From Candidatus Rokuibacteriota bacterium (lineage in GTDB: Bacteria; Methylomirabilota; Methylomirabilia; Rokubacteriales; CSP1-6), in NCBI GenBank assembly GCA_003220265.1, contig QHRW01000115.1, forward strand, positions 83,395 through 147,394: a stretch of DNA of 64,000 nucleotides, given 5' to 3'. Every line of letters starts with the position of its first letter. Within the stretch, counting starts at the first letter, position 1. The translations under genes were made by a program, and so were the position numbers. Positions 22,344 to 54,230 of the stretch are shown in pieces. The notes beneath the pieces are model-generated. The model ran no database searches. It worked only from the letters and a program-made list of their open reading frames with translations, and had not been told where the DNA came from.

Positions 22344-22349
22344 GGGCTG

Positions 22350-36323: not shown

Positions 36324-36776
36324 ATGGGAATCAAGGTGCGCAACGTCGGGCACGTGGTGCTGAAGGTGCGGGACGCCGAGCGGTCGGCGCGCTTCTATCG
36401 CGACGTGCTGGGCCTCAAGGAGGTCGCGCGGGGCAACTTCGGGCGTCCGATGGTGTTCTTCTCCACGGGCGAGAACCACCACGACGTGGCGGTCATGGAA
36501 GTCGGGCCGCAGGCGCCGCTGCCGGAGGCCGGGGGCGTGGGGCTCTACCACGTCGCGCTTCGCATCGGCACCACGCTCGACGAGCTGCGCGCCGCCAAGG
36601 CGCACCTGGAGGCGCACGGCATCACGAAGCTGCGCATCACCGATCATCGCGTGAGCCAGTCGATCTATCTCGACGATCCGGACGGCAACGGCGTGGAGCT
36701 CTACGTGGATGCGGATCCGGCGATCTGGCGGGAAGATCCCAGCCGAGTAGCTTCGGTAGGACCGCTGACGCTCTGA
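36324..36776 (+). CDS. VOC-family (glyoxalase/dioxygenase-fold) protein
   Basis: NVGHVVLKVRDAERSARFYRDVLGL, HHDVAV, HVALRI and DPDGNGVELY. Confidence 0.85.
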   Translation: MGIKVRNVGHVVLKVRDAERSARFYRDVLGLKEVARGNFGRPMVFFSTGENHHDVAVMEVGPQAPLPEAGGVGLYHVALRIGTTLDELRAAKAHLEAHGITKLRITDHRVSQSIYLDDPDGNGVELYVDADPAIWREDPSRVASVGPLTL

Positions 36777-36783
36777 GCGGCGG

Positions 36784-37023
36784 CTAGTTCTTCGCGAGCT
36801 TCTCGATCTCCTTGCGCGTCATCGCCTGACAGCGCGTGAGGAGGCCCTTCACCTTCCGCTCCGAGGCGTGGTCGGCCAGGATCAGCTTCTTGGAGCGACT
36901 TCCGTTGGCGATATACGCCACCCAGTCGTCCAGGTTCGGGGTGCCACGGTATGCGACGGTGACCCCGCTCATTCGCATCCGCCGACGACCCTCGACCTTC
37001 GCGAGTGGCTTCCGACCTTCCAT
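36784..37023 (-). CDS. small basic hypothetical protein (79 aa)
   Basis: GAGAGGG lies 8 nt before the ATG, and a strong promoter-like element lies ~100 nt upstream. No family recognised. Confidence 0.5.
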   Translation of the reverse strand: MEGRKPLAKVEGRRRMRMSGVTVAYRGTPNLDDWVAYIANGSRSKKLILADHASERKVKGLLTRCQAMTRKEIEKLAKN

Positions 37024-37120
37024 CGCGTGTGGCCCTCTCGTCTCGAGATGTCAGAGTGTGCCGGTCGGCATCGACCGCCGTGCCCCCGTCTTGATGGGAG
37101 CGATGTCGAGCACGACGGAG

Positions 37121-37149
37121 AAATTACGAGCGTAAAGATTTCACGTCAA
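37121..37149 (-). promoter_or_regulatory. sigma70-like promoter (TTGACG-17 nt-TAATTT)
   Basis: The minus strand reads TTGACG (37149-37144), a 17-nt spacer, then TAATTT (37126-37121). It points at the 79-aa ORF. Confidence 0.4.
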
Positions 37150-37313
37150 GGTTTCGTTTGCACGCGCCAAATGCGCGCTTCGTGCGCGCGGCGAGGACTT
37201 CGACCAGTGATCATCGCGGAATTATCCTCACCGGTGCATTTAGTGGACGAACGACGCGGCAATGCTTTGGGCACGCCTCGGCAGCCCGCATCAGGCCGGT
37301 CGAATTAGTCACC

Positions 37314-37340
37314 TGTGGACAAGTGTGGACAAGTGGATAA
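37314..37340 (-). promoter_or_regulatory. three tandem DnaA-box-like 9-mers
   Basis: The minus strand reads TTATCCAC-TTGTCCACA-C-TTGTCCACA. TTGTCCACA is the high-GC DnaA-box variant and TTATCCACT is 8/9 to TTATCCACA. Confidence 0.45.
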
Positions 37341-37352
37341 CCTGTGAGCAAC

Positions 37353-38339
37353 TCACGGCTCTCGCACCAGGCGTTCCAAGATGCGACGCGCAAGGATCGG
37401 CCCGCGCGTGATGAATCCCGTGAAATATCCCACCGCGCGCGCTCCCGCGCGCAACAGCGCCACGGCCTTGTCGGGTGTGTCCACGCCCCCGGTGGCGATG
37501 ATCTCCACCGCGTCGCCGAAGCGCTTGCGGGTGCGCCGCACGTTCTCGAGCGTGGCGGGAAAGATGTCGGGCCCGCTGAGGCCGCCCGTGCGCTGGGACA
37601 GGCGCGGCTCGTCGATCCGGCGCGTGTTGCCGTAGTTGATCATCCGCACGCCGGCCTCGAGGGCGGCCGGGATAATATCGCGCTCGTTCACCTCGGCGAA
37701 ATCGGGCGAGAGCTTCACGCTGAGCGGCCGCGGCGACAGGCGGCCGAGCGTCTCCAGCACCGCGCGCAGCTCCTGCGGCCGCTCGCTCCACGCGTAGACG
37801 AGCTTGGTGTTGGGCGAGGAGACGTTCATCTCGACCAGGTCGCCCAGCGGCGCCAGCGCCTGCACGAGCGTGACGTAGTCCTGGACCGACTCGCCCGCCA
37901 CGCTGACGATGAGCGGCACGCGGTGCGCCAGCCCGGCCAGCGAGGCGCGGAAGGCTGTCAGCCCGGGATTCTGGAAGCCGTTGCAGTTGACGAGCCCCGG
38001 GCCCGCCGCCGAGCGCGTGCGCACGAGGTTCGGCTGGGGATGGCCGGGCCGCGGGTTCACCGTGATCGACTTCGCCGTCACCGCGCCGAAGCCCAGGCCC
38101 ATCGCGCGCCGCAGGATCGTCGGATCGTAGTACTGGGCTGCCAGGATCAGCGGATTGGGCAACCGCACACCGCCCAGGGTCGTGGCCAGCCGGGGATCCT
38201 CCAGGCGGAAGGCGCCGAGCCGGTCGAGCGGGAGCAGCTTGAGTGCCCCCTGGCCGAGGGCGATCGCCGTGGGCTCGGGAACCCGGCACAGCACGCCATC
38301 GTAGAGCAGTCGATAGAGCGCGGCGAGGGCGCGGGTCAT
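37353..38339 (-). CDS. pyrD: dihydroorotate dehydrogenase (class 2-like) or paralog
   Basis: Met at 38339 inside ORF 37353..38570(-). NCNGFQNPG, a catalytic-Ser-type NVSSPNT, GGLSG and ATGGV motifs. Confidence 0.65.
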   Translation of the reverse strand: MTRALAALYRLLYDGVLCRVPEPTAIALGQGALKLLPLDRLGAFRLEDPRLATTLGGVRLPNPLILAAQYYDPTILRRAMGLGFGAVTAKSITVNPRPGHPQPNLVRTRSAAGPGLVNCNGFQNPGLTAFRASLAGLAHRVPLIVSVAGESVQDYVTLVQALAPLGDLVEMNVSSPNTKLVYAWSERPQELRAVLETLGRLSPRPLSVKLSPDFAEVNERDIIPAALEAGVRMINYGNTRRIDEPRLSQRTGGLSGPDIFPATLENVRRTRKRFGDAVEIIATGGVDTPDKAVALLRAGARAVGYFTGFITRGPILARRILERLVREP

Positions 38340-38412
38340 CGGAGGGCGAAATGGAGGATAGCATGGGCCTGCGGTCTTGACCTGCGACGGCCGGTTCTTT
38401 ACGGTAGCCAGG

Positions 38413-39183
38413 ATGAGTCGCTGGCTGGCGCTCGGCGTGGCGCTCCTGCTCTCGGCGTGCGCCTCGGTCGCCCCGGCCCCCTCGGCGGTCCGGCCCGACT
38501 TCGCCGGCGTCGCCGGCTTCACCTTCACCACCGACACCTTCGCCTTTCCCAACGAGATCCGCGCCCGCAATCCCGACCGCGAGGATCTCTACGCCAACTA
38601 CTGCTTCGTCCTCGCGCGCGGGCTGCGGCAGTTCTTCCGCTTCGCGCGCTTCGATCCGGCGGCACCGCGCCTGGCGCCCGAAGCCTACGTCGAGCGCGTG
38701 CGGGCGGTGGCCGCGCACGCGCCGTGGGAGCCGCCGGCGCCGCCCGAGGCGCGCATCGTCATCCCGGGCTACGCGAACCTGCGCGACTTCTCGCGCGCCC
38801 AGGAGGCCGCCGTCAAGGAAGGCCTGGGGGGCCGCTTCTGGACGCTCGTGCACTGGACCAACTGGCGCGTGACCTTTCCCGTCACACGCGGCCATCAGGC
38901 CACGGTCGCCCGCGAAGTGATGGACGAGCTCGACGCCGGCCGCATGGTGCAGCTCCTCGTCACCAACTGGCCCAAGCCCGAGCTGAACCACACGGTCGTC
39001 GCCTTCGCTTATCGGCCCGGGGCCGACGGCGTGGAGTTCCTGGTGTGGGACCCGAACGATCCCGGCGAACCGGGCGTTATGACCTTTGATGCCGGCGCCA
39101 GCCGCTTCCGCGCGACGCACCTCTACGACACGGAGCCCGGCCTGATCCGGGCCTTCCGGATGTACTACTCGTGGCTGCTCTGA
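38413..39183 (+). CDS. hypothetical lipoprotein, first gene of the lipid cluster operon
   Basis: Signal peptide MSRWLALGVALLLSAC (lipobox). Overlaps the acyltransferase start by 13 nt. Confidence 0.65.
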   Translation: MSRWLALGVALLLSACASVAPAPSAVRPDFAGVAGFTFTTDTFAFPNEIRARNPDREDLYANYCFVLARGLRQFFRFARFDPAAPRLAPEAYVERVRAVAAHAPWEPPAPPEARIVIPGYANLRDFSRAQEAAVKEGLGGRFWTLVHWTNWRVTFPVTRGHQATVAREVMDELDAGRMVQLLVTNWPKPELNHTVVAFAYRPGADGVEFLVWDPNDPGEPGVMTFDAGASRFRATHLYDTEPGLIRAFRMYYSWLL

Positions 39184-40097
39184 GCGCCCCGCCGGCCGGG
39201 GCCGCCGCACCGGCGCCGCGCTGGTACACGCATCGCCTCAACCGTCCGGCGTTCTATCGCGCCGGCGCCGTGCTCGCGGGCGCGTTGCCGCGCCCCGTGC
39301 GCCTGGCGCTGGCCCGCGGGCTCGCGCGGCGCGCGGCCGAGTGGTTCCCCGCCGAGCGCGCTCGCGTGCGCGCCAACCTCGCGCGCGTCCGGCCGCTCGC
39401 GAGCCCGGCCGAGGGCGAGCGGCTGGTGGACGAGGTCTTCCGCCACTTCGCGATCTGCTTCGCGGATCTCATCAGCACCAATCGCCGCGAGGCGCGGCCG
39501 GACCGGCTGGTGGCGCGCATCGAGGGCGACGAGCACTTGATGGCCGCCGATGCCGAGGGCCGCGGCCTCGTGCTCGTCACCGCGCACTACGGCAACTGGG
39601 AGCTGGGCGGCCGTCTGCTCGCCACGCGGCTGCGCCGGCCCACGCACGTGGTCGTCGCCGCCGAGGCCGATCCCGGCGTGGAGCGCTTTCTGCGCGGCGG
39701 GCCGGCGCCCGTGCGCTTCGTGCGGCGCAGCGATCCCACGGCCATGGTGCCGCTGGTCGCCGCCCTGCGCCGCCACGAGGTCGTGGCCCTCCAGGGGGAT
39801 CGCGCGCTCGGCACGCGCGGCGATGCCCTCGTCGAGTTCTTCGGGGCGCCGGCGCCGTTTCCGCTCGGCCCCTTCGTGCTGGCCCGCGCGGCCGGCGCGC
39901 CCGTCGTGCCCGCCTTCTGCCTGCTCGACCGCGACCTGCGCTACACGGTGGCCATGGCGGCGCCGATTCACGTGAAGGCGGGCGAGGAGACGGCCGCGCT
40001 CGCGACGTGGGTCGGCGTGCTGGAGGCGATGGTGCAGCGCGCGCCCGAGCAGTGGTTCAACTTCTTCGATGTGTGGAGCGCGGCCTCTGCGTCCTGA
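39171..40097 (+). CDS. LpxL/HtrB-type lysophospholipid (lipid A-like) acyltransferase
   Basis: VLVTAHYGNWELGG (HX4E/D acyltransferase motif). Length and layout match the lauroyl/myristoyl acyltransferase family. Confidence 0.8.
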   Translation: MAALSAPPAGAAAPAPRWYTHRLNRPAFYRAGAVLAGALPRPVRLALARGLARRAAEWFPAERARVRANLARVRPLASPAEGERLVDEVFRHFAICFADLISTNRREARPDRLVARIEGDEHLMAADAEGRGLVLVTAHYGNWELGGRLLATRLRRPTHVVVAAEADPGVERFLRGGPAPVRFVRRSDPTAMVPLVAALRRHEVVALQGDRALGTRGDALVEFFGAPAPFPLGPFVLARAAGAPVVPAFCLLDRDLRYTVAMAAPIHVKAGEETAALATWVGVLEAMVQRAPEQWFNFFDVWSAASAS

Positions 40098-41247
40098 GCC
40101 CGTCTCGGTCCTCGCCGCCGGCGTCGTCACGCCGATCGGTCCCGACCTGGACGCGTTCTGGTCCGGTCTGCTCGGCGGCGCCGACGCGCTGACCGCCATC
40201 GAGCGCTTTCCCACCGACGACCTGCGCGTCGGGCGCGGCGGTGAGATCAAGAAGATCCCCGCGGTGGCGGCCGGGATCCGCTCGCGCGCGGCCGCGCTGC
40301 TGATCGCCGCCGGCGCCGATCTCCGCGGCCGGGCGCGCCTGGGTGCCGCCCCGGCGCGCATCGCCGTCGTCGTGGGCACCGCCCTCGGCGGTGTCGAGGA
40401 GCTCGAGCACGCGCTCGACCACGATCCCACGCCGCGGCGCGCCTTCGACGCGCTCTACGACGCGCCCGGGCACGCGCTGGCCGACTGGCTCGGCGCGCGC
40501 GGCCCCGTGCTGACGGTGTCCGCGGCGTGCGCCTCCGGCGCTACGGCGCTCGGCGTCGGCGCCGACCTGCTGCGCGAGGGCGCCGCCGATCTCGTCGTCG
40601 CCGGCGGCTACGACGTCCTCTGCCGCTTCGTGCTGCGGGGCTTCGACGCCCTGCGCTCGCTCACGCGCGAGCGCGTCCGCCCCTTCGACCGCCGGCGCAG
40701 CGGCCTGCTGCTCGGGGAGGCCGCCGGCCTCGTGCTGCTCGCGCGCGAGCGTGACGTGCGCGGGCCGCGCCTGGGCCGCCTGCTGGGCCACGGCAGCGCC
40801 AGCGACGCCTCCCACGTGGCGGCTCCGGATCCCAACGGGCGCGGGCTCGAGGCGGCGATCCGCGCGGCGCTGGCCGCCGCCGACGTCGCGCCCGGCGATC
40901 TCGACTTCGTCAGCGCGCACGGCACCGGGACGCCGCTCAACGACCGGATCGAGACGGCCGTCCTCCGCCGGGTGCTCGGCGCGCGGGCGGAGGCGATTCC
41001 GGTGAACTCGATCAAGGGCGCGCTCGGGCACACGATGGGCGCCGCCGCCGCGCTGGAGGCGATCATGTGCCTGCTGGCGGCGCGCGAAGGGCTCATCCCG
41101 CCCACGGCGGGCTTCGAGGAGCCGGACCCGTCCTGCGGGCTCGACTACGTCCCGGGCACCTGCCGCGCCGTCCGGCCCCGCCTGATGCTGAGCACCTCCC
41201 TCGGCTTCGGGGGCTGCAACGCGGCGCTCGTCCTGGAGCGTGCCTGA
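40069..41247 (+). CDS. beta-ketoacyl-ACP synthase (active Cys-His-His)
   Basis: SAACASGATA (Cys), SAHGTGTPLND (His) and GALGHTMGAAAALE (His). Confidence 0.85.
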   Translation: MCGARPLRPEPVSVLAAGVVTPIGPDLDAFWSGLLGGADALTAIERFPTDDLRVGRGGEIKKIPAVAAGIRSRAAALLIAAGADLRGRARLGAAPARIAVVVGTALGGVEELEHALDHDPTPRRAFDALYDAPGHALADWLGARGPVLTVSAACASGATALGVGADLLREGAADLVVAGGYDVLCRFVLRGFDALRSLTRERVRPFDRRRSGLLLGEAAGLVLLARERDVRGPRLGRLLGHGSASDASHVAAPDPNGRGLEAAIRAALAAADVAPGDLDFVSAHGTGTPLNDRIETAVLRRVLGARAEAIPVNSIKGALGHTMGAAAALEAIMCLLAAREGLIPPTAGFEEPDPSCGLDYVPGTCRAVRPRLMLSTSLGFGGCNAALVLERA

Positions 41248-41250
41248 ACC

Positions 41251-42054
41251 TTGGGCGCCCGGGTGGCCGGCGTGGGAATATTGACGGGTTGGGGCGAGGG
41301 CCCCGCGGCCTTGCCGGCCGAGGCGCGCACCGCGGCGGCCGGCCGCGCGGTGCTGCCGATCGACCGGCCGGCGCTGGACGGCGAGCGATTTCGCCGGGCC
41401 ACGCGCGAGTGCCTGCTGGGCGTGGCCGCGGTGCAGGCCATGCTGGCCGACGCCGGGCTGGACCGCGCGGCGATCCGCGGCGAGCGGACGGCGCTGCTGT
41501 TCGTGACCGCGGCGGCCTACGGCGCCTCCAATGCCGAGTTCCTGGCGGGGCGGGCGGGGACGCTGCACTTCCCGTACACGGCGCCCAGCGCGCTCTCGGG
41601 CGAGGTCGCGATCGAGTTCGGTCTGACGGGCGCCTATGTCATTCTGATTGGCGGCGCCCCGGCCACGATCGACGCGCTCTGGCAGGCGAGTCGGCTGCTG
41701 GCCGAGGGACGGTGCGACCGCGCGCTGGTCCTGGTCGTCGAGACCTTCGAGGAATGCGAGGCGCTCTGGCGCCGCGCGCGCTGGACGCTGCCGCTGCCGC
41801 TGGTCGAGACGGCCGCCTGCGCGCTGCTGGCCCAGTCTGACGGCGCGCCCGCGGCCTATCGCGCGGCCGCCGCGCCGGCAGCGCTCGAGACCGCGGCGGA
41901 GACCCGCGCGGGGCGGACGCTGGCGGGCGCGCCGCTGATCGCGCTGGGGCTGGCGCGCGCCGCGGGCGAGAGCGTGGCGCGCGTCACCGGTACCTGGCGC
42001 GGACGCACGGCGGGGATCGACCTGGCCGTGGCACGCGAGGCGGCGCGAGTCTGA
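41251..42054 (+). CDS. short KS-like protein lacking the active-site Cys (chain-length-factor-like)
   Basis: 267 aa. GGAPATIDA occupies the position of the KS Cys motif, and there is no HGTGT/GH pair. TTG start (GTG 41263 is the alternative). Confidence 0.65.
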   Translation: MGARVAGVGILTGWGEGPAALPAEARTAAAGRAVLPIDRPALDGERFRRATRECLLGVAAVQAMLADAGLDRAAIRGERTALLFVTAAAYGASNAEFLAGRAGTLHFPYTAPSALSGEVAIEFGLTGAYVILIGGAPATIDALWQASRLLAEGRCDRALVLVVETFEECEALWRRARWTLPLPLVETAACALLAQSDGAPAAYRAAAAPAALETAAETRAGRTLAGAPLIALGLARAAGESVARVTGTWRGRTAGIDLAVAREAARV

Positions 42055-42073
42055 GGCGACGGGCAGGAGGATC

Positions 42074-42349
42074 ATGGAAGCCAAGGAAGTCATCGACGAG
42101 CTGAAGACGATCCTGGTGGCGCGGCTGAAGTTCGATCCGCGCCGCGCCGCCGAGGTCGCCGAGACGACGCCGCTGCCGAAGGGCGTCGAGGGCTCCATCG
42201 GTCTGGACTCGCTGGACTTCATCGAGCTGTCCATCGCCATCGAGGAGAAGTTCGACGTGGTCATGGACGAGTCGGAGGACCTGAGCGCGCACTTTGCCTC
42301 GTTCGACACGCTCTCGCGCTTCATCGTGGGCCGGCGCGGCCCCGCATGA
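42074..42349 (+). CDS. acyl carrier protein
   Basis: RBS GGCAGGAGG. Phosphopantetheine Ser in GLDSLDFIEL. Confidence 0.85.
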   Translation: MEAKEVIDELKTILVARLKFDPRRAAEVAETTPLPKGVEGSIGLDSLDFIELSIAIEEKFDVVMDESEDLSAHFASFDTLSRFIVGRRGPA

Positions 42350-43530
42350 GGCGCGTCGTCGTCACGGGCCTCGGCGCCGTCACCCCGTTCGGCGCCGGCA
42401 TCAAGCCCTACTGGGCCGGCCTTGCGGGCGGTGCCTGCGCCATCCGGCCGCTCACGCTGATCGACGCCGGCGGCTTTCGCTGTCGCATCGCCGCCGAGGT
42501 GCCGGGGGCCACCGGTGGCTCGCCGCGCCGCTCGCGCGCCGACCGTCTGGCGCTCGGCGCCGCGCTGGAGGCGCTCGAGGACGCCGGGCTCACCGCGGCC
42601 GACCGCGCGGACACCGCGCTCGTCACCGGCGCCGTCGGCGGCGGCATGCTCGAAGCCGAGGCGTGGTACTGGGCGCGCGCGCGGGGCGAGCGGCCGCCGG
42701 GCTGGGCCGCCGCGCTGCGCGCGATCCTCCCGGGCTCGCACGCCGAGACGCTCGGCCACCGCTTGGGCCTCGGCGGCCCGCGCCACACCGTGGTCACCGC
42801 GTGCTCGTCGGGCGCGGTCGCGCTGGCCGAGGCCGCCGATCTCATCGCCGACGGCGTGGTCGACGTCGCCCTCGCGGGCGGCGTGGATGCCATGACGCGG
42901 ATGTGCTTCATGGGCTTCAACGCGCTCAAGCTGCTCGATCCCGAGCCCTGCCGTCCCTTCGATCGCGACCGCCGCGGCATGTCGATCGGCGAGGGCGCGG
43001 CCTTCGTCGTGCTGGAGACCGCCGAGCGCGCCCGCGCGCGCGGGGTGCGCGTCTACGCCGAGCTGGCCGGCCACGGGATGACGACCGACGCCTTCCACGT
43101 CACGGCGCCGGAGCCGGAGGGCGACGGCATGGTGCGCGCGATGCGCGCCGCGCTGGCCGCGGCCGGCGAGAGCGCGGCGGCCGTGGGCTACGTCAACGCA
43201 CACGGCACGGCGACGTCGCAGAACGATCGTATCGAGGCGCGGGCCATCGCGCGCGTGTTCGGCGAGGGCCGGCTGCTCGTCAGCTCGATCAAGTCGATGA
43301 TCGGCCACACGATGGCGGCGGCCGGCGGGCTGGAAGCCGTGGCGACCATCCTCACGCTGACCGAGGCGCTCATCCCGCCGACGGCGACGCTGGTGACGCC
43401 CGACCCCGAGGTGGCCTTCGACTGCGTCCCCGGCGTGGCGCGCGAGGCGGCGGTCGAGTGCGCCATCTCCAACTCCTTCGGCTTCGGCGGACAGAACGTC
43501 ACGCTCCTCTTCAGGCACGCCGCCTCGTGA
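42346..43530 (+). CDS. beta-ketoacyl-ACP synthase II-like (active Cys-His-His)
   Basis: VTACSSGAVA, NAHGTATSQND, IGHTMAAAGGLE and a C-terminal SNSFGFGGQN. Confidence 0.9.
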   Translation: MRRVVVTGLGAVTPFGAGIKPYWAGLAGGACAIRPLTLIDAGGFRCRIAAEVPGATGGSPRRSRADRLALGAALEALEDAGLTAADRADTALVTGAVGGGMLEAEAWYWARARGERPPGWAAALRAILPGSHAETLGHRLGLGGPRHTVVTACSSGAVALAEAADLIADGVVDVALAGGVDAMTRMCFMGFNALKLLDPEPCRPFDRDRRGMSIGEGAAFVVLETAERARARGVRVYAELAGHGMTTDAFHVTAPEPEGDGMVRAMRAALAAAGESAAAVGYVNAHGTATSQNDRIEARAIARVFGEGRLLVSSIKSMIGHTMAAAGGLEAVATILTLTEALIPPTATLVTPDPEVAFDCVPGVAREAAVECAISNSFGFGGQNVTLLFRHAAS

Positions 43531-44609
43531 TGGACCGGCGGGCCGTCGTCGTCACGGGCGTGGGCGTGGTGAACTCCGTCGTCGTGGGTGCCTCGCCGGC
43601 GCTGGGCGCGTGGCTGGCGCAGCCGCGCGCCGCGGCGCGCGTGGCGGTGGGCCACGGGCGGCCGGCCGCGCGGCTGCCGGAGGCGACGCTGGCCGGCCTC
43701 GTCGATCCCGCCGAGGGCCGGCGGCTCTCGCGCGTGTGCCAGCTCACCATCGCCGCCGCGCGGCTGGCGGTGGCGGAGTCCGGGGTCGATCCCGCGTGCG
43801 GCCTCGGGCTCGTCGTGGGCACCGAGCTTGGCGATTTCACCTCCACCATCGCGTTCGCCGACGGGTATCTCGCGCGCGGCGCCGCCGGGCTCTCGGCGCT
43901 GCTGTTCCCCAACACGGTGATGAACACCATGGCGGCGACGACCGCCATCGCCGTGGCCGCCCGCGAGCTGGCGCTGACGCTCAACGTGCCGACCGTGGCC
44001 GGCGAGCTGGCCGTCGCGCGTGGCTTCGCCGCGGTGGCGAGCGGGCGCGTGGACGCCGTGCTGGCCGGAGGCGTGGACGAGCTGGATCCGCTGGTGGCCG
44101 AGATGCTCGACGCCCTCGGCGACGACGCCGTGCGGGGCGAGGGGGCGACGTTTCTCGTGCTCGAGGCCGAGGCCGTCGCGCGCGCGCGTGGCGCCGCAGT
44201 GCTCGGCCGTATTGACGGCGCGGCGTGGCGCTCGCTGGCAGCGCGGCCGTGGGGCGTGGGGCGGCGCGCGGAGTCGCGGGCCATCGACGAGGCGCGCCGG
44301 CGTGCCGGCGGGCGCGTGCCGGGCTTCGTGTATGCCTCGGCGAGCGGCGACGCCGAGCGTGACGGCTGGGAGTCGCGCGTGCTGGCGGCGGCGCTCGGTG
44401 ACGTCCCGCCCGCGGCGTCGCTCGGCGCGCTGCTCGGGCAGCACGGCGGGCTCGGCGCCCTGCGCGTCGCGGCGGCCGCGTGGACCGCGCGCTCGGGCCT
44501 GCTGCCGGACGACGCGGGCGGTCCCCCGGCGCGTGTGAGCGGGCCGGGCCTCGTGCACGGCCTCGCGCGCGGCGGCGGCCACGTCGCCTTGATGGTGAGC
44601 GCGGCATGA
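43530..44609 (+). CDS. KS-like protein without catalytic triad (second CLF-like partner)
   Basis: 359 aa. PTVAGELAV replaces the Cys motif, ASASGDAERD replaces HGTGT, and LGQHGGLGAL replaces GHT. Its ATG (43530-43532) shares one nt with the upstream TGA stop (43528-43530), GTGATGG. Confidence 0.7.
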   Translation: MDRRAVVVTGVGVVNSVVVGASPALGAWLAQPRAAARVAVGHGRPAARLPEATLAGLVDPAEGRRLSRVCQLTIAAARLAVAESGVDPACGLGLVVGTELGDFTSTIAFADGYLARGAAGLSALLFPNTVMNTMAATTAIAVAARELALTLNVPTVAGELAVARGFAAVASGRVDAVLAGGVDELDPLVAEMLDALGDDAVRGEGATFLVLEAEAVARARGAAVLGRIDGAAWRSLAARPWGVGRRAESRAIDEARRRAGGRVPGFVYASASGDAERDGWESRVLAAALGDVPPAASLGALLGQHGGLGALRVAAAAWTARSGLLPDDAGGPPARVSGPGLVHGLARGGGHVALMVSAA

Positions 44610-45673
44610 GCGTGTTGATCGTCATCCCCGTGCTCGACGAGGCGCACACGGTCGGCCGCGTCGTCGAGGCGGCGCGCGTCTACGGTCCGGTCCTGGTCGT
44701 GGACGACGGCTCGCAGGACGGCAGCGGCGCCGTGGCGACGGCGGCCGGCGCCGAGGTGCTGCGCCATCCGCGCCCGCTCGGCAAGGCGCAGGCGCTCTTC
44801 ACCGGCGTGGCCGCCGCTCGCCGCCGCGGCGTCCGCCGCGTCGTCACGCTCGACGGCGACGGCCAGCACGATCCCGACGCGATTCCTGTGCTGCTCGCCG
44901 CGGCCGCGGCGGCCGAGCGCACGATCGTGGTGGGCAACCGCCTGGACGGGCGGGGCACGCTGCCCCCGATGCGGCGCAACGCCATCCGCATCGCCAGCTT
45001 CTTCGCGGGCTGGACGTGCGGGCGTGCGGTGTCCGACAGCCAGTCGGGCTTCCGCGTCTATCCGCTGGCGCTCTTCGACGAGGTGCGCACGCGCCACGGA
45101 GGCTTCGTGTTCGAGACGGAGATCCTCCTGGCGGCGACCGCGCGCGGCTGGAGGATCGAGGAGGTCGGCGTACCCGCGCTGCCGCGCACCGTGGCGCGCA
45201 GCCACTTCCGTCCCATCCGTGACGGCATTGCCATCGGCTCGTTCCTGGCCGGGCGCGTGCTGGCGCGCTGGGCCGGCGAGGCCCGGGCCGTCGCGGGGGA
45301 GGTGCTTGGCGTCTTCGATCCCGAGCGGATGTCGGCGCGGCACGCCGAGATGCTGGAGGCGGCCTCGCGCTACACGGATTCGCCCGCGCGCTGGAGCGCG
45401 GCCGTCGGCGCCGTGGCGCTCCGGCGGGCGGGCGCGCGCGTCGTCTCCGTGTGCGACGGCGTACGGCGGCGCGGCACGCCGGCGGCGGCGCTCGCCACGC
45501 TGGCCGCACCGCTGACGCTGCCCCTGCTGCTCGTGCAGGCGCTGACGGGAGAGCGCGTGCCCGACGTCGTGACGCCGCTCGTCGAGGCGGTCTACGGCGG
45601 TGGACGCGCCGGGCGCGCGGCCGTCCGGATGGACGTCGACGTGGCCGACACGGTGGCCGAGGGGCACTCGTGA
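44606..45673 (+). CDS. family-2 glycosyltransferase (Dpm1-like) with C-terminal extension
   Basis: VIPVLDE, VVDDGSQDGS and LDGDGQHDP, with a C-terminal ~120-aa hydrophobic/Ala-rich tail. Confidence 0.8.
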   Translation: MSVLIVIPVLDEAHTVGRVVEAARVYGPVLVVDDGSQDGSGAVATAAGAEVLRHPRPLGKAQALFTGVAAARRRGVRRVVTLDGDGQHDPDAIPVLLAAAAAAERTIVVGNRLDGRGTLPPMRRNAIRIASFFAGWTCGRAVSDSQSGFRVYPLALFDEVRTRHGGFVFETEILLAATARGWRIEEVGVPALPRTVARSHFRPIRDGIAIGSFLAGRVLARWAGEARAVAGEVLGVFDPERMSARHAEMLEAASRYTDSPARWSAAVGAVALRRAGARVVSVCDGVRRRGTPAAALATLAAPLTLPLLLVQALTGERVPDVVTPLVEAVYGGGRAGRAAVRMDVDVADTVAEGHS

Positions 45674-46941
45674 CCCCGATGACCTCCGACGTCGCCGTCA
45701 TCGGCGGCGGCCCCGGCGGCTCGAGCGCCGCCACGCACCTGGCGCGCGGCGGGTTGAGCGTGGCGCTGTTCGAGCGCGAGGTGTTTCCGCGCTTCAAGGT
45801 CGGCGAGTCGCTGGTGCCCGCCACGATGCTGATGCTGGAGCGGCTCGGCGTCCTCGAGCGTGTCGAGCGCGGCGGCTACCAGATCAAGTACGGGGCGACC
45901 TTCCACGACCAGGAGACGGGCCTCGGCCACACGTTCTACTTCCTCGAGGGCATGCCGTGGCCCAACTGGACCTACAACGTCCCCCGCGCCGACTTCGACG
46001 CGCTGCTGCTCGATCACTCCCGCAAGCAGGGCGTGGTCGTGCACCAGCCGGCCACCGTGAGCGGGGTGGCCTTCGACGCCGACGGCGTCACGCTGGACGT
46101 GGACAGCGGCGGCGATCGCCTCACGCACCGCGCGCGCTTCCTGGTCGACGCCAGCGGGCGCGACGCGTTCCTGGCCGCGCGCCGCGGCCGCCGCTCGCGC
46201 GTGCCGAATCTCGGCAAGGTGGCGCTCTTCGCCCATTACAAGGGCGGCGCGCGCTTCCCCGGCCGCGAGGAGGGCAACGTCCGCATCTACCTGTTCGAGG
46301 GCGGCTGGTTCTGGTGGATCCCGATGGCGAACGACCTCACCAGCGTGGGCGCGGTCGTCCACGCGCGCGTCGTGCGCGAGCACGCCGGCACGCCGGAGGC
46401 GCTGTTTGCGGAGATGGTGCAGCGCTGCCGCGCGGTGGCCGAGAACCTCGCGGGCGCCCAGCCCGTGACGCCGATCCATCGCGCCGCCAACTTCGCCTAT
46501 ACCAACGCGCCGGTGGTGGGGAGCCGCTTCCTGACCGTGGGCGACGCCATCGCCTTCGTGGACCCGATCTTCTCGAGCGGCGTGTTCATCGCGATGCGCT
46601 CGGGCGAGCTGGCCGCGCAGGCCATCCTGGCCGCGTTCGCCGACGGCCGCTTCACCGCGCGCCGCTTCGCCGCCTACGAGCGGAAGGTCTGGCGCGGCGT
46701 GGCGCCGTTCTTCAAGTTCATCCACAAGTACTACGAGCCGTCCTTCCTCGATCTCTTCCTGCAGCCGCGCGACAAGCTCGGCATGGTGCGCGCCGTCCTC
46801 AACGTCCTCTCCGGCGGCGCTTTCATCCGCATGCCGTGGCGCGTCCGCGCCTCCCTCGCCCTCCTCTTCGGCATCGCCCGCATCAACACCTGGGTCCGCC
46901 GGAGAGCCGGCAAACCCGTCGAGTCGCGACTCGAATGGTAG
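45670..46941 (+). CDS. FAD-dependent halogenase-like oxidoreductase
   Basis: GTGA overlap with the GT2 stop. Dinucleotide motif VIGGGPGGS, FPRFKVGESL, and the WxWxIP-type motif GGWFWWIPM. Confidence 0.75.
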   Translation: MTPMTSDVAVIGGGPGGSSAATHLARGGLSVALFEREVFPRFKVGESLVPATMLMLERLGVLERVERGGYQIKYGATFHDQETGLGHTFYFLEGMPWPNWTYNVPRADFDALLLDHSRKQGVVVHQPATVSGVAFDADGVTLDVDSGGDRLTHRARFLVDASGRDAFLAARRGRRSRVPNLGKVALFAHYKGGARFPGREEGNVRIYLFEGGWFWWIPMANDLTSVGAVVHARVVREHAGTPEALFAEMVQRCRAVAENLAGAQPVTPIHRAANFAYTNAPVVGSRFLTVGDAIAFVDPIFSSGVFIAMRSGELAAQAILAAFADGRFTARRFAAYERKVWRGVAPFFKFIHKYYEPSFLDLFLQPRDKLGMVRAVLNVLSGGAFIRMPWRVRASLALLFGIARINTWVRRRAGKPVESRLEW

Positions 46942-47111
46942 TGCGAGCCGCAGGACGTCGGCCGAGCCGCAGGCGAGGCCCGTGCGAGGCGAGCCTGAGT
47001 AAAGAATGGGAGGCCGCACGCAGCGCCCGTCGCGGGTCGGAACGGGCAGCCGCCGTGCGAGCCGCAGGACGTCGGCCGAGCCGCAGGCGAGGCCCGTGCG
47101 AGGCGAGCCTG
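46941..47111 (+). repeat. 57-bp perfect direct repeat x2 (114-bp period) between halogenase-like gene and ABC permease
   Basis: GTGCGAGCCGCAGGACGTCGGCCGAGCCGCAGGCGAGGCCCGTGCGAGGCGAGCCTG occurs at 46941-46997 and 47055-47111. Each copy is followed by a ...TAAA..GAATGGGA.. block. Confidence 0.85.
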
Positions 47112-47120
47112 TAAACAAGA

Positions 47121-48294
47121 ATGGGAAGAATCACGCGACGCTACGGCTTCACGATCGCCGGGATCGCGATCGGCGTGGCGGGGATCGTGGCGCTGGGCGC
47201 GATGGGCGAGCGGATCGTGCGCTTCATCGAGGGCGGCGATCGCTTCGTGCTCGGGCAGATCTCGGTGGCCGGCAAGGGCATGGGCATGGGCGCGGGCTTC
47301 ACGGCGGGCGGGATGCTGCCCGCCTCGGCCATCCGCGCGATCGCCGCGGTGCCCGGTGTCTCGGGCGTGCAGGCCCAGGTGATGCTGCCGCTGAACCCAT
47401 CCACCTCGCAGTTCATGACGCTGACGCAGGAGCTGATCCTGGGCGTCGATCTCTCGGTGCCCTCGCCGAATCGCCAGTTCCCCACGCTGCCCATTCGTGA
47501 GGGGCGCCAGCTGCGCGCGGGCGATCGTGGCGTGGCGGTGGTGGGCGCCTCGTTCGCGACCTCGCACGGCCTCCGCGTGGGCAGTGCGCTGACGCTGGAG
47601 GGCGAGGCCTACCGCGTCGTCGGCGTGCTCGAGCGCACGCTGACCGCGCCCGACCGCTTCGTGATGGTGGCGATCGAGGACGCGCGCCGGCAGTGGGTGG
47701 CCAAGGACCGCATGCTGCGCACGATCATCGCCTCGGGGGCGGCGGCGGTGAACGCGGCCGATCTCAACACGGGCGCCGCCGTCGGCTGGCGTGACGGCGA
47801 GGATCCCGACGCGGTCGCACGCCGAATCACCGAGCGGGTCGAGGGCGTCAACGTCCAGATCCCGAGCGAGCTGAGCGCGCTGCTGCGCTCGTCGACGGCG
47901 TTCTTCTCGGCGCTGCTGGGCGGCATCGGCGCGCTGGCCTTCGTCATCGGCGGGCTCTCGCTGGCCAACACGATCGCGGCGGCCGTCTTCGAGCGGCTGC
48001 GCGACTTCGGCGTCAAGCGCGCGCTGGGCGCCACCGACTGGCAGCTCGGGCGCGAGGTGCTGGCCGAGGCCCTGGCCGTCACGCTCTCCGGCGGCGCCGT
48101 CGGCGTGGCGCTGGCGATCCTGCTGGGGGCCTCCGTCGACCGCTGGGCGGCGCGCAGCGGCCAGCAGCTCTTCCTCTTCTCCGGCCGCCTGCTCGGCGGC
48201 GCGCTGGTCTTCTCGGTGCTGCTCGGCGCGGCAGCGGCGGCGTACGCGACGCTCCGCGTGGTGCGGCTGTCGCCGGCCGAGGCGATCCGGCGCG

Positions 48295-48302
<8 letters not shown>
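47121..48302 (+). CDS. MacB/FtsX-type ABC transporter permease
   Basis: N-terminal TM, a large periplasmic domain, and a C-terminal FtsX 3-TM bundle (GGLSLANTIAAAVFERLRDFGVKRALGA). Confidence 0.85.
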
Positions 48303-48989
<687 letters not shown>

Positions 48990-48993
<4 letters not shown>

Positions 48994-49403
48994 GGCACGT
49001 GCTGCGGGCCGTCGTTCTCGCCCTGCTCCTGAGCGTGCCGGCGGCCGCCGCCGGACCGGTGCAGTTCACGTTCAACGCGCCGGTGGACCGCGCGTGGGAC
49101 AGGACGATGGCGGTCCTGAAGGTGCTCGGCTGGGACATCGATCGCTCCGACCAGAGCATCGGGATCATCGTCACCGGCTCGCGCCGGCTCGACGGCGACA
49201 ACTTCGGCGTGTACGAGAAGGCGCTACGCCACCGCCTGCAGCTCAACCTGCGCCGCGCCACCGACACGCGCACCACCATCAGCATCGAGCGCAGCGTGTT
49301 CAAGCGCGAGCGCATCCTGTTCGTCGACAAGGATGAGCCGATCACGGACCCGCGCACGGACACCGAGAAATCCATCCTCGACGCCATCGGCAAGGCCCTG
49401 TGA
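48990..49403 (+). CDS. secreted hypothetical protein
   Basis: Signal peptide MRHVLRAVVLALLLSVPAAAA. ATGA- and GTGA-coupled within the operon. Confidence 0.6.
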
Positions 49404-49771
49404 TCAAGACCCTCGTGCTGGTGCTCATCGCCGGGCTGCTCGGGGGCACCGGCCATGTCCTGCTGTCCAAGGGCATGAAGACCGTCGGCGATCTCACCGA
49501 GGCGCCGGCCGCGCACGTGGGCGGCATGGTGACGCGGGCCGTCAGCAACCCGTGGCTGCTGCTCGGCGTCGTGCTGCAGGCGTCGTTCTTCTTTCTCTAC
49601 CTCACGCTGCTCTCGCGCGCCGACGTCAGCAAGATCCTGCCGATGACCGCGTTCGACTACATCGTGGTCGCCGTCCTCGCGCACCTGATCCTGGCCGAGC
49701 CGGTGACGCCGGCGCGGTGGACGGGCATCGGCTTCATCGTGGCCGGCGTCTTCCTGGTGTCGCGCACCTGA
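49400..49771 (+). CDS. small EamA/ArnE-like 4-TM membrane protein
   Basis: 123 aa, four hydrophobic helices, EamA-like C-terminus (ARWTGIGFIVAGVFLV). Sits immediately upstream of the ArnT-like gene. Confidence 0.7.
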   Translation: MIKTLVLVLIAGLLGGTGHVLLSKGMKTVGDLTEAPAAHVGGMVTRAVSNPWLLLGVVLQASFFFLYLTLLSRADVSKILPMTAFDYIVVAVLAHLILAEPVTPARWTGIGFIVAGVFLVSRT

Positions 49772-51483: not shown

Positions 51484-51499
51484 TTCGCGATCAAGTAAT

Positions 51500-52939
51500 A
51501 TGACCGGGATGTCCGGCTACCTTCGCACGCTGTTCCTGCATCCGCCCTCGTTCGAAGGGTTCGACGGCGGGGCCGGCAGCCGCTACCAGGCCCGCCGCGA
51601 GGTGCGCTCCTTCTGGTATCCGACCTGGCTCGCCCAGCCGGCGGCGCTCGTGCCGGGCTCACGCCTGATCGACGCGCCCCCGGCCGACCTCTCGCTGGGC
51701 GACGTCGTGCCGCTGGCCCGCGACTACGACCTGGCCGTTCTGCACACGAGCGCGCCGTCCTTCGCGCACGACGTGAAGGTGGCCGAGGCGCTGCGCGAGG
51801 CGAATCCGAAGATCCGCGTCGGCTTCGTGGGCGCCCACGTGGCCGTGGCGCGCGAGACGGCGCTCGAGGCCTCGCCGGCGATCGAGTTCGTGACGGGCAA
51901 CGAGTTCGACTTCACCATCCAGGAGATCGCGCAGGGCCGGCCCATCGACCGGGTGACGGGCGTCTCGTATCGCACGAACGGCCACGTGCACCGCACGCCC
52001 GAGCGCGCGCCCCTCGAGGACATGGACCGGCTGCCCTACGTGGTCGACGTCTACAAGCGCGACCTCGACGTGGAGCGTTACTTCATCGGTTACCTGCTGC
52101 ATCCCTACCTGTCGCTCTACACGGGCCGCGGCTGCCGCTCGAAGTGCACGTTCTGCCTGTGGCCGCAGACGGTGGGCGGCCAGCGGTACCGCACGCGCTC
52201 GGTGGACAACGTGGTGGCGGAGATCGAGCGGGCCACGCGGCTCTTTCCGCAGGTCAAGGAGTACTTCTTCGACGACGACACCTTCACCGACGACTTGCCG
52301 CGCGCCGAGGCGATCGCGCGCGGGCTGGGCCGGCTGGGCGTCACGTGGTCGTGCAACGCCAAGGCCGACGTGCCCTACGCCACGCTGAAGATCCTCAAGG
52401 ACAACGGGCTGCGCCTGCTGCTGGTCGGCTACGAGTCGGGTAGCCAGGCCATCCTCAACAACGTCAAGAAGGGCATCCGCCTCGATCGCGCGCGCGAGTT
52501 CACCCGCCACGCCAAGGCGCTCGGCATCACCATCCACGGCACGTTCGTCATGGGCCTGCCGGGCGAGACGCGCGAGACCATCGAGGCCACCATCAAGTTC
52601 GCGCTCGAGATCGATCCGCACACGATCCAGGTCTCGCTGGCGGCGCCGTATCCCGGCACCGCGCTCTACCGCGAGGCGCAGGCGCGCGGCTGGCTGGAAA
52701 CCGAGTCGCTGGTGGACGCCGGCGGCGTGCAGACCAGCGTGCTCGGCTACCCGCACCTCGGCCGCACCGAGATCTTCGCCTCGCTCGAGCAGTTCTACCG
52801 CCGCTTCTACTTCCGCCCGCGCAAGATCTTCGCCATCGGCGCCGAGATGCTCCGCGACCGCGCGGTGCTGCGGCGCCGCCTCGGCGAGGGCGCGGACTTT
52901 CTGCGCTTCCTGGCGCGCCGGCGCCGAGAACGTCATTGA
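51500..52939 (+). CDS. B12-binding radical SAM protein, HpnJ-like
   Basis: 479 aa. LFLHPPSFEGFDGGAGSRYQARREVRSFWYPTWLAQPAAL and CRSKCTFC (CX3CX2C). The N-terminal signature matches my memory of the HpnJ (TIGR03471-type) family. Confidence 0.8.
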   Translation: MTGMSGYLRTLFLHPPSFEGFDGGAGSRYQARREVRSFWYPTWLAQPAALVPGSRLIDAPPADLSLGDVVPLARDYDLAVLHTSAPSFAHDVKVAEALREANPKIRVGFVGAHVAVARETALEASPAIEFVTGNEFDFTIQEIAQGRPIDRVTGVSYRTNGHVHRTPERAPLEDMDRLPYVVDVYKRDLDVERYFIGYLLHPYLSLYTGRGCRSKCTFCLWPQTVGGQRYRTRSVDNVVAEIERATRLFPQVKEYFFDDDTFTDDLPRAEAIARGLGRLGVTWSCNAKADVPYATLKILKDNGLRLLLVGYESGSQAILNNVKKGIRLDRAREFTRHAKALGITIHGTFVMGLPGETRETIEATIKFALEIDPHTIQVSLAAPYPGTALYREAQARGWLETESLVDAGGVQTSVLGYPHLGRTEIFASLEQFYRRFYFRPRKIFAIGAEMLRDRAVLRRRLGEGADFLRFLARRRRERH

Positions 52940-52950
52940 GGGAGACGGTC

Positions 52951-53997: not shown

Positions 53998-53999
53998 CG

Positions 54000-54229: not shown

Positions 54230-54230
54230 C

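Follow-up and report, generated by a model that had tools for sequence, protein, structure and literature searches.

Two ketosynthase/chain-length-factor-like pairs in a conserved Rokubacteria gene block that lacks chain-processing enzymes and may specify an envelope glycolipid

The described systems closest to the genes considered here are the aryl polyene lipid (APEL) clusters, which pair a ketosynthase (KS) and a chain-length factor (CLF) with acyl carrier proteins (ACPs). The core set of these ape genes includes a ketoreductase (KR; apeQ), dehydratases (DH; apeI/P) and an MMPL transporter (apeM) (Grammbitter et al.). For the aryl-polyene lipid of Xenorhabdus, ApeJ has been proposed to join N-acetylgalactosamine to a glycerolipid phosphate, the ACP-bound polyene then being esterified on the sugar (bioRxiv 10.1101/2020.12.19.423268). 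A further point of reference is Cluster I of the anammox bacteria, where amxFabF2/amxFabFmut is a KS/CLF-like pair that primes by malonyl-ACP decarboxylation, and which has no KR or enoyl reductase (ER) of its own (bioRxiv 10.64898/2026.05.19.726425). Here we analyze a 64,000-nucleotide stretch of Candidatus Rokuibacteriota DNA (contig QHRW01000115.1; the whole stretch is called the window), in which positions 38413–52939 are one conserved block of Rokubacteria (Methylomirabilota). This block carries two KS/CLF-like pairs, a single ACP, enzymes of lipid-linked sugar chemistry and an ABC transport system, and no recognizable enzyme for processing, starting or releasing a chain. Our tentative preference, which we regard as nearly evenly balanced, is that the block makes and exports an APEL-like envelope glycolipid with an ACP-built chain, borrowing its reductive enzymes from fatty-acid synthesis of type II (FAS-II).

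Because the G+C content of the window is ~72%, genes were called by third-position GC and then translated. This gave nine plus-strand genes between 38413 and 46941, with start/stop overlaps at 39171, 40069, 42346, 43530, 44606 and 45670. A preliminary description of this DNA had proposed the same nine coupled genes; all six of its overlaps agree with our gene calls and coordinates, every motif it quoted for the KSs, CLFs, ACP, acyltransferase and flavoprotein is present in the translations, and the profile search it suggested returned the Pfam families ketoacyl-synt, Lip_A_acyltrans, PP-binding and Trp_halogenase, besides Glycos_transf_2. However, its end of the operon at 46941 did not hold, as the conserved unit reaches ~52939. 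The first gene encodes a lipoprotein (38413–39183; lipobox LLSAC), and is followed by an acyltransferase of LpxL/PatA/ApeJ C-terminal type (39171–40097; Lip_A_acyltrans, 2e-35; HX4E motif HYGNWE), KS1 (40069–41247; N- and C-terminal ketoacyl-synt domains), its truncated 267-aa KS-fold partner CLF1 (41251–42054; N-terminal ketoacyl-synt domain only, 1.8e-8), a dedicated 91-aa ACP (42074–42349; PP-binding; GLDSLDF), KS2 (42346–43530; both ketoacyl-synt domains) and its 359-aa KS-like partner CLF2 (43530–44609; N-terminal ketoacyl-synt domain only, 1.3e-4). The last two genes encode a family 2 glycosyltransferase (GT2) of the lipid-phosphate sugar transferase type, similar to PpgS, ArnC and the N-terminal part of ApeJ (44606–45673; Glycos_transf_2; C-terminal membrane segment), and a predicted flavin-dependent halogenase of the carrier-protein-dependent (“variant B”) type (45670–46941; Trp_halogenase, 3e-28).

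To find related loci we searched with an alignment of CLF2, taking one genome per species, and kept a set that included 27 loci of Rokubacteria type; gene order was then read from tblastn of the window proteins against the kept loci. The block 38413–52939 is syntenic in these 27 Methylomirabilota/Rokubacteria species-representative loci, and the block was present in every species-level genome that the CLF2 search recovered. The conserved order is lipoprotein, acyltransferase, KS1, CLF1, ACP, KS2, CLF2, GT2 and an optional halogenase, continuing with an FtsX-type permease, an ABC ATPase, an optional periplasmic protein, an optional EamA protein, a PMT_2 protein and HpnJ. We draw the block to ~52939 because the genes at 47121–52939 share synteny with the KS operon. 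Protein identities across the 27 loci are ~40–88%, with CLF2 falling to ~40% and the KSs to 60–65%. In soil metagenomes the families comprise 1188 (CLF2), 1659 (lipoprotein) and 1321 (CLF1) protein clusters, and KS2 recurs unchanged on several soil-metagenome contigs. The gene block is real, selected and abundant, and not a chance arrangement. Two of the 27 loci are labelled Verrucomicrobiia and have 72% G+C and the Rokubacteria gene order, so the bin label of one locus (L026; L numbers are our locus labels) may be wrong. In another locus, L042, the KS1, GT2, lipoprotein, FtsX and halogenase genes are split or truncated, either because the copy is decaying or through frameshift errors in long reads.

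The alignments confirmed what the preliminary description had said of the KSs: both retain the Cys-His-His triad (AACASG, HGTGT and GHTMG in KS1; TACSSG, AHGTAT and GHTMA in KS2) and are predicted to be active, and each is coupled in translation, or almost so, to a partner of KS fold that is catalytically dead. CLF1 has Ala at the Cys position (GGAPAT) and lacks most of the C-terminal half, and CLF2, when aligned to the actinorhodin (act) KS, has the changes Cys to Thr, His to Ser and His to Gln (motifs PTVAGE and ASASGD). A KS beside a triad-less homologue, together with a dedicated ACP, is the arrangement of type II polyketide synthases (PKSs), and we infer that KS1/CLF1 and KS2/CLF2 could each form a heterodimer. 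Compared by blastp with E. coli references, KS1 comes nearest to ApeO (36% identity, and 30% to FabF), and KS2 is 36% identical to FabF and 34% to ApeO. The best PDB match of KS1 is 9s5h_B (255 bits), which we take to be the amxFabF2 subunit of the anammox amxFabF2/amxFabFmut heterodimer, and that of KS2 is Thermus FabF (286 bits). Both KSs score under the cut-off of the fabF model TIGR03150 (352.5 bits for KS2 and 260.1 bits for KS1, against 493.75). In a rough neighbor-joining (NJ) tree with E. coli references, among them its only FabF sequence, the Rokubacteria versions of KS1, KS2 and CLF2 make up one clade each, apart from E. coli FabF/FabB, and these clades nest among the KSs and CLFs of clusters from Desulfuromonadales, Acidobacteriota, Verrucomicrobiia, Planctomycetota and Methylomirabilis. 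Within the tree, KS2 groups with KSs of aryl polyene (APE)/“ladderane”-type clusters, and CLF2 with CLFs of Acidobacteriota, Verrucomicrobiia and Planctomycetota clusters. The model score and the separate clades thus place the KSs outside the housekeeping FabF/FabB group, an outcome that the preliminary description had asked to be checked. A CLF2 profile built from all tblastn matches also picked up true KSs and was discarded; no relation of CLF2 to ApeC was detectable by blastp or profile. The AlphaFold2 (AF2) model of CLF1 (pLDDT 83) has as its top Foldseek match the ishigamide CLF Iga12 (6kxe_B, E 2e-9), followed by the act CLF and the AntDE/AntF complex, suggesting that CLF1 is most similar to the CLFs of type II PKSs.

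The enzymes that normally accompany such KSs are missing. Pfam searches of the ~50 called window open reading frames (ORFs), with recorded Pfam hits for four more, found no adh_short/KR, FabA/FabZ/MaoC, ER, AMP-binding, ammonia-lyase, Acyl_transf_1 or hot-dog domain. Our reference sequences were the E. coli fab, arn and lpxL genes and the whole ape cluster of strain CFT073. Six-frame searches of the 64 kb with FabG, FabZ, FabA, FabI and FabD gave no match better than E = 0.04, and neither did searches with ApeQ/I/P/K/H/D/L/M/N or with the KR, DH and thioesterase (TE) of related clusters. The earlier statement that the 64 kb holds no KR, DH, TE, adenylation enzyme or ammonia-lyase was therefore upheld by both methods. 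The only TE-like signal in the window is a weak one, from an alpha/beta hydrolase at 3669–4532, ~34 kb away. It had also been suggested that the block could be a standard aryl-polyene cluster with KR and DH encoded just outside; tblastn of the 27 Rokubacteria loci with flanks of up to 10 kb found no DH, ER, TE, ligase, malonyl-CoA:ACP transacylase (MCAT), LolA or MMPL, and no KR that we count as such. The 10 kb past the right edge of the window contain no reductive, releasing or starter enzyme of the block, just a small nonribosomal peptide synthetase (NRPS) cluster.

Two candidates for the missing reductases were considered and rejected. Seven loci of subclade B (L019, L020, L022, L024, L025, L026 and L042) have a gene for a short-chain dehydrogenase/reductase (SDR) at the head of the operon. 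In L022 this gene occupies 3968–4732, 1 bp from the lipoprotein gene; neither the window nor its close relatives contain it. As a KR this protein is unconvincing: it scores best as a KduD/glucose-1-dehydrogenase-type enzyme and below the FabG cut-offs. Because of its KduD-type score it may act on a sugar, and we do not count it as a KR. The other candidate, a gene resembling dihydroorotate dehydrogenase (DHODH) at 37353–38339 on the minus strand, was examined as a cryptic ER. It has the class-2 motif NVSSPN and an N-terminal membrane segment, it stands beside the operon only in close relatives and is absent there in subclades B and C, and it is most likely pyrD.

The operon does encode enzymes that could attach a chain to a lipid. 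In E. coli CFT073, ApeJ (L087, 31213–32889) is a fusion of a GT2 (residues 5–224) and an LpxL-type acyltransferase (residues 289–550). By blastp, the GT2 here matches ApeJ residues 5–224 (1.5e-13) and, more weakly, ArnC (1.6e-8), and the acyltransferase matches ApeJ residues 289–550 (30%, 5e-15), with LpxL on a par (28%). Judged by sequence, the two proteins together correspond to a split ApeJ, and the halves of ApeJ are separate genes in Rokubacteria and in their Desulfuromonadales and Acidobacteriota relatives. The label “LpxL-type” that the acyltransferase had been given was right as to the family (PF03279, 122.8 bits) and the HX4E motif, and wrong as to closeness to LpxL, as the protein is nearer to PatA and the ApeJ C-terminus. 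Its best NCBIfam model is the phosphatidylinositol mannoside (PIM) acyltransferase (106 bits), with every model under its cut-off; the best score against the LpxL/LpxM/LpxP equivalogs is 70.6 bits (cut-off 297.8), its nearest PDB relatives are PatA (1.5e-8) and then LpxM, and HYGNWE aligns with the PatA motif. PatA O-acylates a mannose of PIM. The GT2 scores 112 bits on the NCBIfam model PpgS (below cut-off) and has ArnC as its best PDB relative; PpgS and ArnC are both lipid-phosphate sugar synthases. The ACP is closest to ApeE (32%, 8e-12; AcpP, 3e-5, both by blastp), and there is one ACP here vs two (apeE, apeF) in the ape core set. No equivalent of ApeD was found in the window by tblastn.

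The flavoprotein at the end of the operon aligns with carrier-dependent halogenases. Its PDB relatives are ChlB4 (221 bits), 3e1t (“Halogenase”, which we take to be CndH), 5buk (“FADH2-dependent halogenase”, presumably Mpy16), PltA and CmlS, with scores of 190–221 bits over ~350–380 residues. The motifs GGGPGG, QIKYGATF with its Lys, WFWWIP (in GGWFWWIP) and FVDPIFSSG are all present, and 19 of the 20 aligned relatives keep the catalytic Lys, which is lost only in the degraded L042 locus. The non-halogenating kin QhpG (172 bits) and LodB (109 bits) also score, under the cut-off. We also checked the geranylgeranyl-reductase-type enzyme that the preliminary description had named as an alternative, and the retained halogenase residues speak against it; by its motifs and alignments the protein is a halogenase-type enzyme of the carrier-protein-dependent kind. 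It is not, however, part of the operon core. Four loci (L021, L024, L029 and L031) lack the gene, and L026 has it twice in tandem (12214–14854; paralogues 60% and 56% identical to the window enzyme), so that the halogenase is an accessory gene, present in most lineages and varying between zero and two copies. Halogenases are also carried by the Caulobacter-type relatives L079 and L081. The known carrier-dependent halogenases work in NRPS/PKS antibiotic pathways, on pyrrolyl, tyrosyl or salicyl thioesters.

Downstream of the halogenase the block continues after a spacer (46941–47111, plus strand), the only sizeable intergenic gap within it. The spacer contains two exact 57-bp direct repeats, at 46941–46997 and 47055–47111, where none are expected by chance. 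Between near-identical strains the length of the halogenase-to-ABC spacer is 66, 180 or 280 bp (180 bp in the window), which suggests that strains differ in how many repeats they carry. Next come a MacB/FtsX-type ABC permease with a periplasmic core domain (47121–48302, plus strand; Pfam MacB_PCD and FtsX), which directly follows the GT2 or halogenase gene in nearly all related loci that extend that far, and an ABC ATPase resembling LolD/MacB/DevA (48295–48993, plus strand; Pfam and NCBIfam). A small secreted periplasmic protein (48990–49403, plus strand) has a signal peptide without a lipobox Cys in its translation and no Pfam or NCBIfam match; it was detected in most subclade A loci and in none of subclade B or C. 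The following gene encodes a small EamA-type membrane protein (49400–49771, plus strand; Pfam EamA) that resembles ArnE/ArnF (NCBIfam ArnE, 32.5 bits, below cut-off; blastp to ArnE, 31%, 2e-8) and is a putative flippase for a lipid-linked sugar. It is followed by a GT-C glycosyltransferase (49717–51483, plus strand; Pfam PMT_2) with ~12 hydrophobic segments, a distant relative of ArnT (NCBIfam ArnT, 38 bits, below cut-off; blastp 21%, 1e-6).

The last gene of the block (51500–52939, plus strand) encodes a B12-binding radical SAM (rSAM) protein that matches the HpnJ equivalog over its full length (TIGR03471, 755.1 bits vs a cut-off of 577.6). On the rSAM_ladder_B12 model TIGR04072 it scores 77.9 bits (cut-off 360), and is thus not of the ladderane type. 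The genes from the ABC system to HpnJ overlap or abut one another, and HpnJ is found downstream in all three Rokubacteria subclades. HpnJ is reported to be confined to genomes with squalene-hopene cyclase (SHC) and HpnH, and Methylomirabilota to carry HpnP (PMC12324291). In the subclade C loci L029 (14112–16354) and L031, a CDP-alcohol phosphatidyltransferase-like (PIP-synthase-like) gene and an HpnL-like gene for an LPG_synthase_TM protein sit immediately before the HpnJ gene. Beyond HpnJ the window has a WD40 lipoprotein gene and then four minus-strand genes (54231–57476), encoding a NodB-type deacetylase near HpnJ (54231–54920), a glycosyltransferase resembling monogalactosyldiacylglycerol (MGDG) synthase and diglucosyl-diacylglycerol synthase (54917–56032), a methyltransferase (56032–57060) and a DUF6941 protein (57057–57476). 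In L024 the MGDG-synthase-like gene is divergent from HpnJ across a gap of ~140 bp. No orthologues of HpnI or HpnK were detected, and the region 51500–57476 may be a non-orthologous module that, like HpnI/HpnK/HpnJ, converts an aminosugar to a cyclitol.

The lipoprotein gene at the other end, which the preliminary description had left undescribed, matches Pfam DUF8321/DUF8322 (PF26995/PF26997) and heads the operon in most Rokubacteria loci that extend that far upstream. The protein is 100% identical to one in NCBI from a Candidatus Rokuibacteriota metagenome-assembled genome, and its residues C64, H193 and D213 are invariant. Foldseek searches with its AF2 model (pLDDT 80) gave only weak papain-like matches (E ≥ 0.01; TM-scores 0.2–0.3), and we hypothesize that it could be a papain-like Cys-His-Asp protein. 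Upstream of the operon are housekeeping genes, namely AcpS, YjeF, TsaE, RadC and a glyoxalase, together with the divergent DHODH-like gene. A search of 36700–54400 showed neither a sigma-70-like promoter nor a terminator above chance, and Rfam gave no element inside or beside the block.

Taken as an APEL-like glycolipid pathway, the block might work as follows. KS1/CLF1 and KS2/CLF2 would be two heterodimers with different chain-length windows, primed by decarboxylation of malonyl-ACP as in the anammox FabF pair. Housekeeping FabD would load malonyl units, and housekeeping FabG, FabZ and FabI would process the beta-carbon in trans. Where a halogenase is present it would modify the ACP-bound chain. 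The GT2 could form a lipid-phosphate-N-acetylhexosamine and the acyltransferase could move the chain from the ACP onto its sugar, after which the ABC system and the periplasmic proteins would carry the lipid to the outer membrane, taking the place of the LolA/MMPL/DUF3261 set. The ArnE/ArnT-like pair and HpnJ might then act on the sugar head group, processing it further or transferring it. We favor borrowing of FabG/FabZ/FabI because the KSs descend from reducing systems and because the anammox cluster, too, does without its own KR or ER. Mycobacteria offer another precedent, since their acpM-kasA-kasB operon contains elongating KS genes without reductive partners. A product that differs from the known aryl polyenes is plausible.

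Several observations weigh against parts of this scheme. Borrowing from FAS-II is argued from absence and precedent. A saturated chain is an implausible substrate for a flavin halogenase whose nearest kin use aromatic or enolizable carrier-bound substrates, and this type of halogenase, together with the full lack of DH and ER, favors an unreduced or aromatic chain. Since the GT2 has a likeness to polyprenyl-phosphate sugar synthases as well, it may act on a different lipid from the acyltransferase. HpnJ and the ArnE/ArnT-like pair are tied to the KS genes by conserved adjacency only, and in subclade C other genes replace the ArnE/ArnT-like pair, a swap that also suggests head-group variation between lineages. 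We also considered CLF1 as an orthologue of ApeC, which was not supported by blastp, by the family profile or by a PDB profile search. Nevertheless, in our view, a product left unreduced is no likelier than one made with borrowed FabG/FabZ/FabI.

The alternative to which these points lead is a non-reducing or minimally reducing type II PKS, which would make a short poly-beta-keto chain on the ACP. The chain would either remain a beta-keto acyl group or, still bound as a thioester, fold to a small aromatic acid; it would be chlorinated or brominated on the ACP, and the resulting halo-aryl or halo-ketoacyl group would be esterified to a lipid-linked sugar. The preliminary description had raised such an unreduced or halogenated polyketide-lipid. 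We think this possible, if unlikely. It fits the lack of DH and ER in cis across the 27 loci (with the subclade B SDR not counted as a KR), the type II PKS character of the KS/CLF architecture and of the CLF1 fold, and the kinship of the halogenase, with its conserved Lys, to ChlB4 (221 bits), PltA, CmlS, 3e1t and 5buk. Halogenases of the ChlB4, PltA and CmlS type act on carrier-bound aromatic or enolizable substrates, and in chlorothricin biosynthesis ChlB4 halogenates an ACP-bound salicylate unit that is then transferred to a sugar. The variation in halogenase copies from zero to two is also what would be expected for tailoring of a reactive head group, although several lineages dispense with the enzyme altogether. 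However, Pfam shows no cyclase, aromatase or TE among the window ORFs, the nearest clusters all have KR and DH, which argues that the KSs descend from enzymes handling reduced intermediates, and no case is known to us in which a type II KS/CLF makes a short aromatic acid. It is doubtful, in our judgement, that the full sequence of events runs from a reductase-free KS/CLF chain (poly-beta-keto or a small aromatic), halogenated on its carrier, to esterification on a lipid-linked aminosugar with a head group possibly remodeled by HpnJ, perhaps on a hopanoid.

More clearly unlikely is a very-long-chain acyl system for lipid A or a hopanoid-linked lipid, in which the KS pairs would elongate ordinary acyl-ACP, the LpxL-type enzyme would add a secondary acyl chain, the GT2, deacetylase and ArnE/ArnT-like proteins would add an aminosugar, and HpnJ would act on a hopanoid sugar. 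Analogues exist in the rhizobial acpXL-fabF1XL-fabF2XL-lpxXL cluster, the hopanoid-lipid A of Bradyrhizobium, and the Arn, Lgm and Flm aminosugar systems. The Lip_A_acyltrans domain with its HX4E motif, the 91-aa ACP, the detectable similarity to ArnC, ArnE and ArnT, the NodB-type deacetylase nearby (54231–54920), and an HpnJ above its equivalog cut-off (HpnJ being reported only from SHC+HpnH genomes, and HpnP from Methylomirabilota; PMC12324291) would all suit this explanation, as would the TonB-dependent receptor in the window, which indicates that the organism is diderm. Yet the acyltransferase scores far under the LpxL/LpxM cut-offs and is nearer to PatA and the ApeJ C-terminus, the KS/CLF kin are of the APE/“ladderane” type and not rhizobial (the rhizobial system being compared by description), and the halogenase is left unexplained. 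The rhizobial cluster also has its own FabZ and a dehydrogenase, neither of which is present here. An ordinary aryl-polyene, flexirubin or xanthomonadin cluster with its KR, DH, TE and aryl-starter ligase elsewhere in the genome seems improbable to us. It would account for the similarities to ApeO, ApeE and ApeJ and has a parallel in the halogenases of Caulobacter-type L079 and L081, but the core KR, DH and MMPL are not in cis in the 27 loci or in the 64 kb with the adjoining 10 kb, an ApeH-like ligase, ApeK and ApeD are lacking, one ACP stands in place of two, export is by a MacB-type ABC system and not LolA/MMPL, and it would be unusual for KR and DH to be unlinked from a tightly coupled operon in every species. 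Housekeeping fatty-acid genes or a chance juxtaposition, finally, are hardly credible. The match of KS2 to Thermus FabF (286 bits) is the one point on their side; both KSs are under the fabF cut-off and paired with inactive partners, there is no fabH/fabD/fabG context, and the gene order and overlapping codons are conserved over 27 species, evidence by which this explanation is effectively refuted already.

Elsewhere in the window, a cobalamin riboswitch (9754–9933) precedes CobU, CobT and CobQ-like genes and a BtuF/FecCD/ABC uptake set, and a second one (15663–15851) precedes the gene for the TonB-dependent receptor, followed by CbiZ; further past CbiZ, within the region 9754–23270, are a second CobQ-like gene and CobD. 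ARAGORN called a permuted transfer-messenger RNA (tmRNA) at 61175–61580 on the minus strand. This call has no Rfam match, lies mostly inside an MmgE/PrpD coding region, and is probably a false positive. An Sfp-type phosphopantetheinyl transferase gene (63389–63979, minus strand) heads the NRPS cluster just beyond the right edge (L096, 6994–14943), which consists of a 1376-aa condensation-adenylation-thiolation-thioesterase protein, a P450 and a 604-aa adenylation-thiolation protein. It holds the sole AMP-binding domains nearby and has no connection with the KS/CLF genes.

Rokubacteria, which to our knowledge have never been cultured, abound in soils all over the world. We found no paper on this block in the literature on Rokubacteria/Methylomirabilota, which offered only general surveys of biosynthetic gene clusters. 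The KS/CLF, ACP and ApeJ-like logic is already known; what is new is the loss of all in-cluster chain-processing enzymes in an abundant, uncultured soil phylum. The block probably specifies a major, so far uncharacterized envelope lipid. It also provides an evolutionary case in which the APE/“ladderane” family sheds its beta-carbon-processing, starter and release enzymes and swaps its export machinery, and a naturally occurring test of the extent to which type II KS/CLF systems can lean on the enzymes of primary fatty-acid synthesis. If the chain should prove to be unreduced and halogenated, its product would be a new class of halogenated envelope glycolipid and a possible soil biomarker. The adjacency of HpnJ hints at a link between the chemistry of the block and hopanoid head groups.

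Compared with known systems, the block shares parts with several and the whole of none. With the Arn, Lgm, Flm and PpgS systems and HpnI-K-J it has in common a GT2, an EamA flippase-like protein, a GT-C enzyme, a nearby NodB-type deacetylase and HpnJ, but all except HpnJ are far below the equivalog cut-offs, and KS/CLF and ABC genes stand in between. The halogenase has the GxGxxG, catalytic Lys, WxWxIP and FxDPxxSxG features of ChlB4, CndH, PltA, Mpy16 and CmlS and is in an operon with an ACP; unlike those enzymes, it belongs to a lipid operon without an evident aromatic substrate. Anammox Cluster I likewise has a FabF-like KS with a triad-less partner acting as CLF, and no KR or ER. It differs in having its own FabZ, a phytoene-desaturase-like flavoprotein and a ladderane-type B12 rSAM, and in lacking the GT2, acyltransferase, halogenase and exporter that are all found in the block. 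With no FabZ by tblastn and no flavoprotein besides the halogenase by Pfam, the Rokubacteria block does not contain the anammox-type set.

The resemblance to aryl-polyene, flexirubin and xanthomonadin logic that was proposed at the outset is borne out by the matches to ApeO, ApeE and a split ApeJ. Like the APEL clusters of E. coli CFT073 (apeA-R) and Xenorhabdus doucetiae, the block has a type II KS with a CLF-like partner, a dedicated ACP, a leading lipoprotein gene, a GT2 and an LpxL-type acyltransferase (fused in ApeJ, separate here), dedicated outer-membrane export, and a product logic in which an ACP-built chain would be esterified to a sugar-phosphate lipid. In contrast, ApeQ, ApeI/P, ApeK, ApeH, ApeD, ApeB and ApeG have no counterpart here, export by LolA/MMPL/DUF3261 is replaced by a MacB ABC system with periplasmic proteins, and two KS/CLF pairs with one ACP stand against a KS/CLF, a lone KS and two ACPs. 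Of the ape core functions, the KS and ACP are therefore represented in the block, whereas the KR/DH, the MMPL and LolA, and the ApeH starter ligase are not; without the ape KR, DH and MMPL transporter, the block is not a member of the ape clusters. The nearest homologues of KS2/CLF2 and of KS1 are in “ladderane-type” KS/CLF clusters of Desulfuromonadales/Geobacter, Acidobacteriota and Methylomirabilis (L051, L047, L036, L056 and L070), for which we found no paper that characterizes them. These clusters also have the GT2 and LpxL-type acyltransferase as separate genes. Unlike the block, they carry a KR, a DH, a 4HBT TE, an MCAT-like acyltransferase, LolA, MMPL and two to three B12 rSAMs of other subfamilies. 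The nearest non-Rokubacteria locus, the Desulfuromonadales outgroup L051, encodes a DUF3473 deacetylase, a GT2, a SPASM rSAM, an LpxL-type acyltransferase, three B12 rSAMs, an MCAT-like acyltransferase, a 4HBT TE, a FabG-like KR, a KS, a CLF, a FabA-like DH, LolA and MMPL. L036 (Acidobacteriota) has an AMP-ligase, a KR and an ApeP-like DH, and the same enzymes recur across the outgroup. Because the outgroup clusters carry this full enzyme set, we read the Rokubacteria block as a streamlined descendant of the APE/“ladderane-type” family, one that appears to have lost the KR, DH, TE, acyltransferase of the MCAT type and ligase and to have exchanged LolA/MMPL for a MacB-type ABC system.

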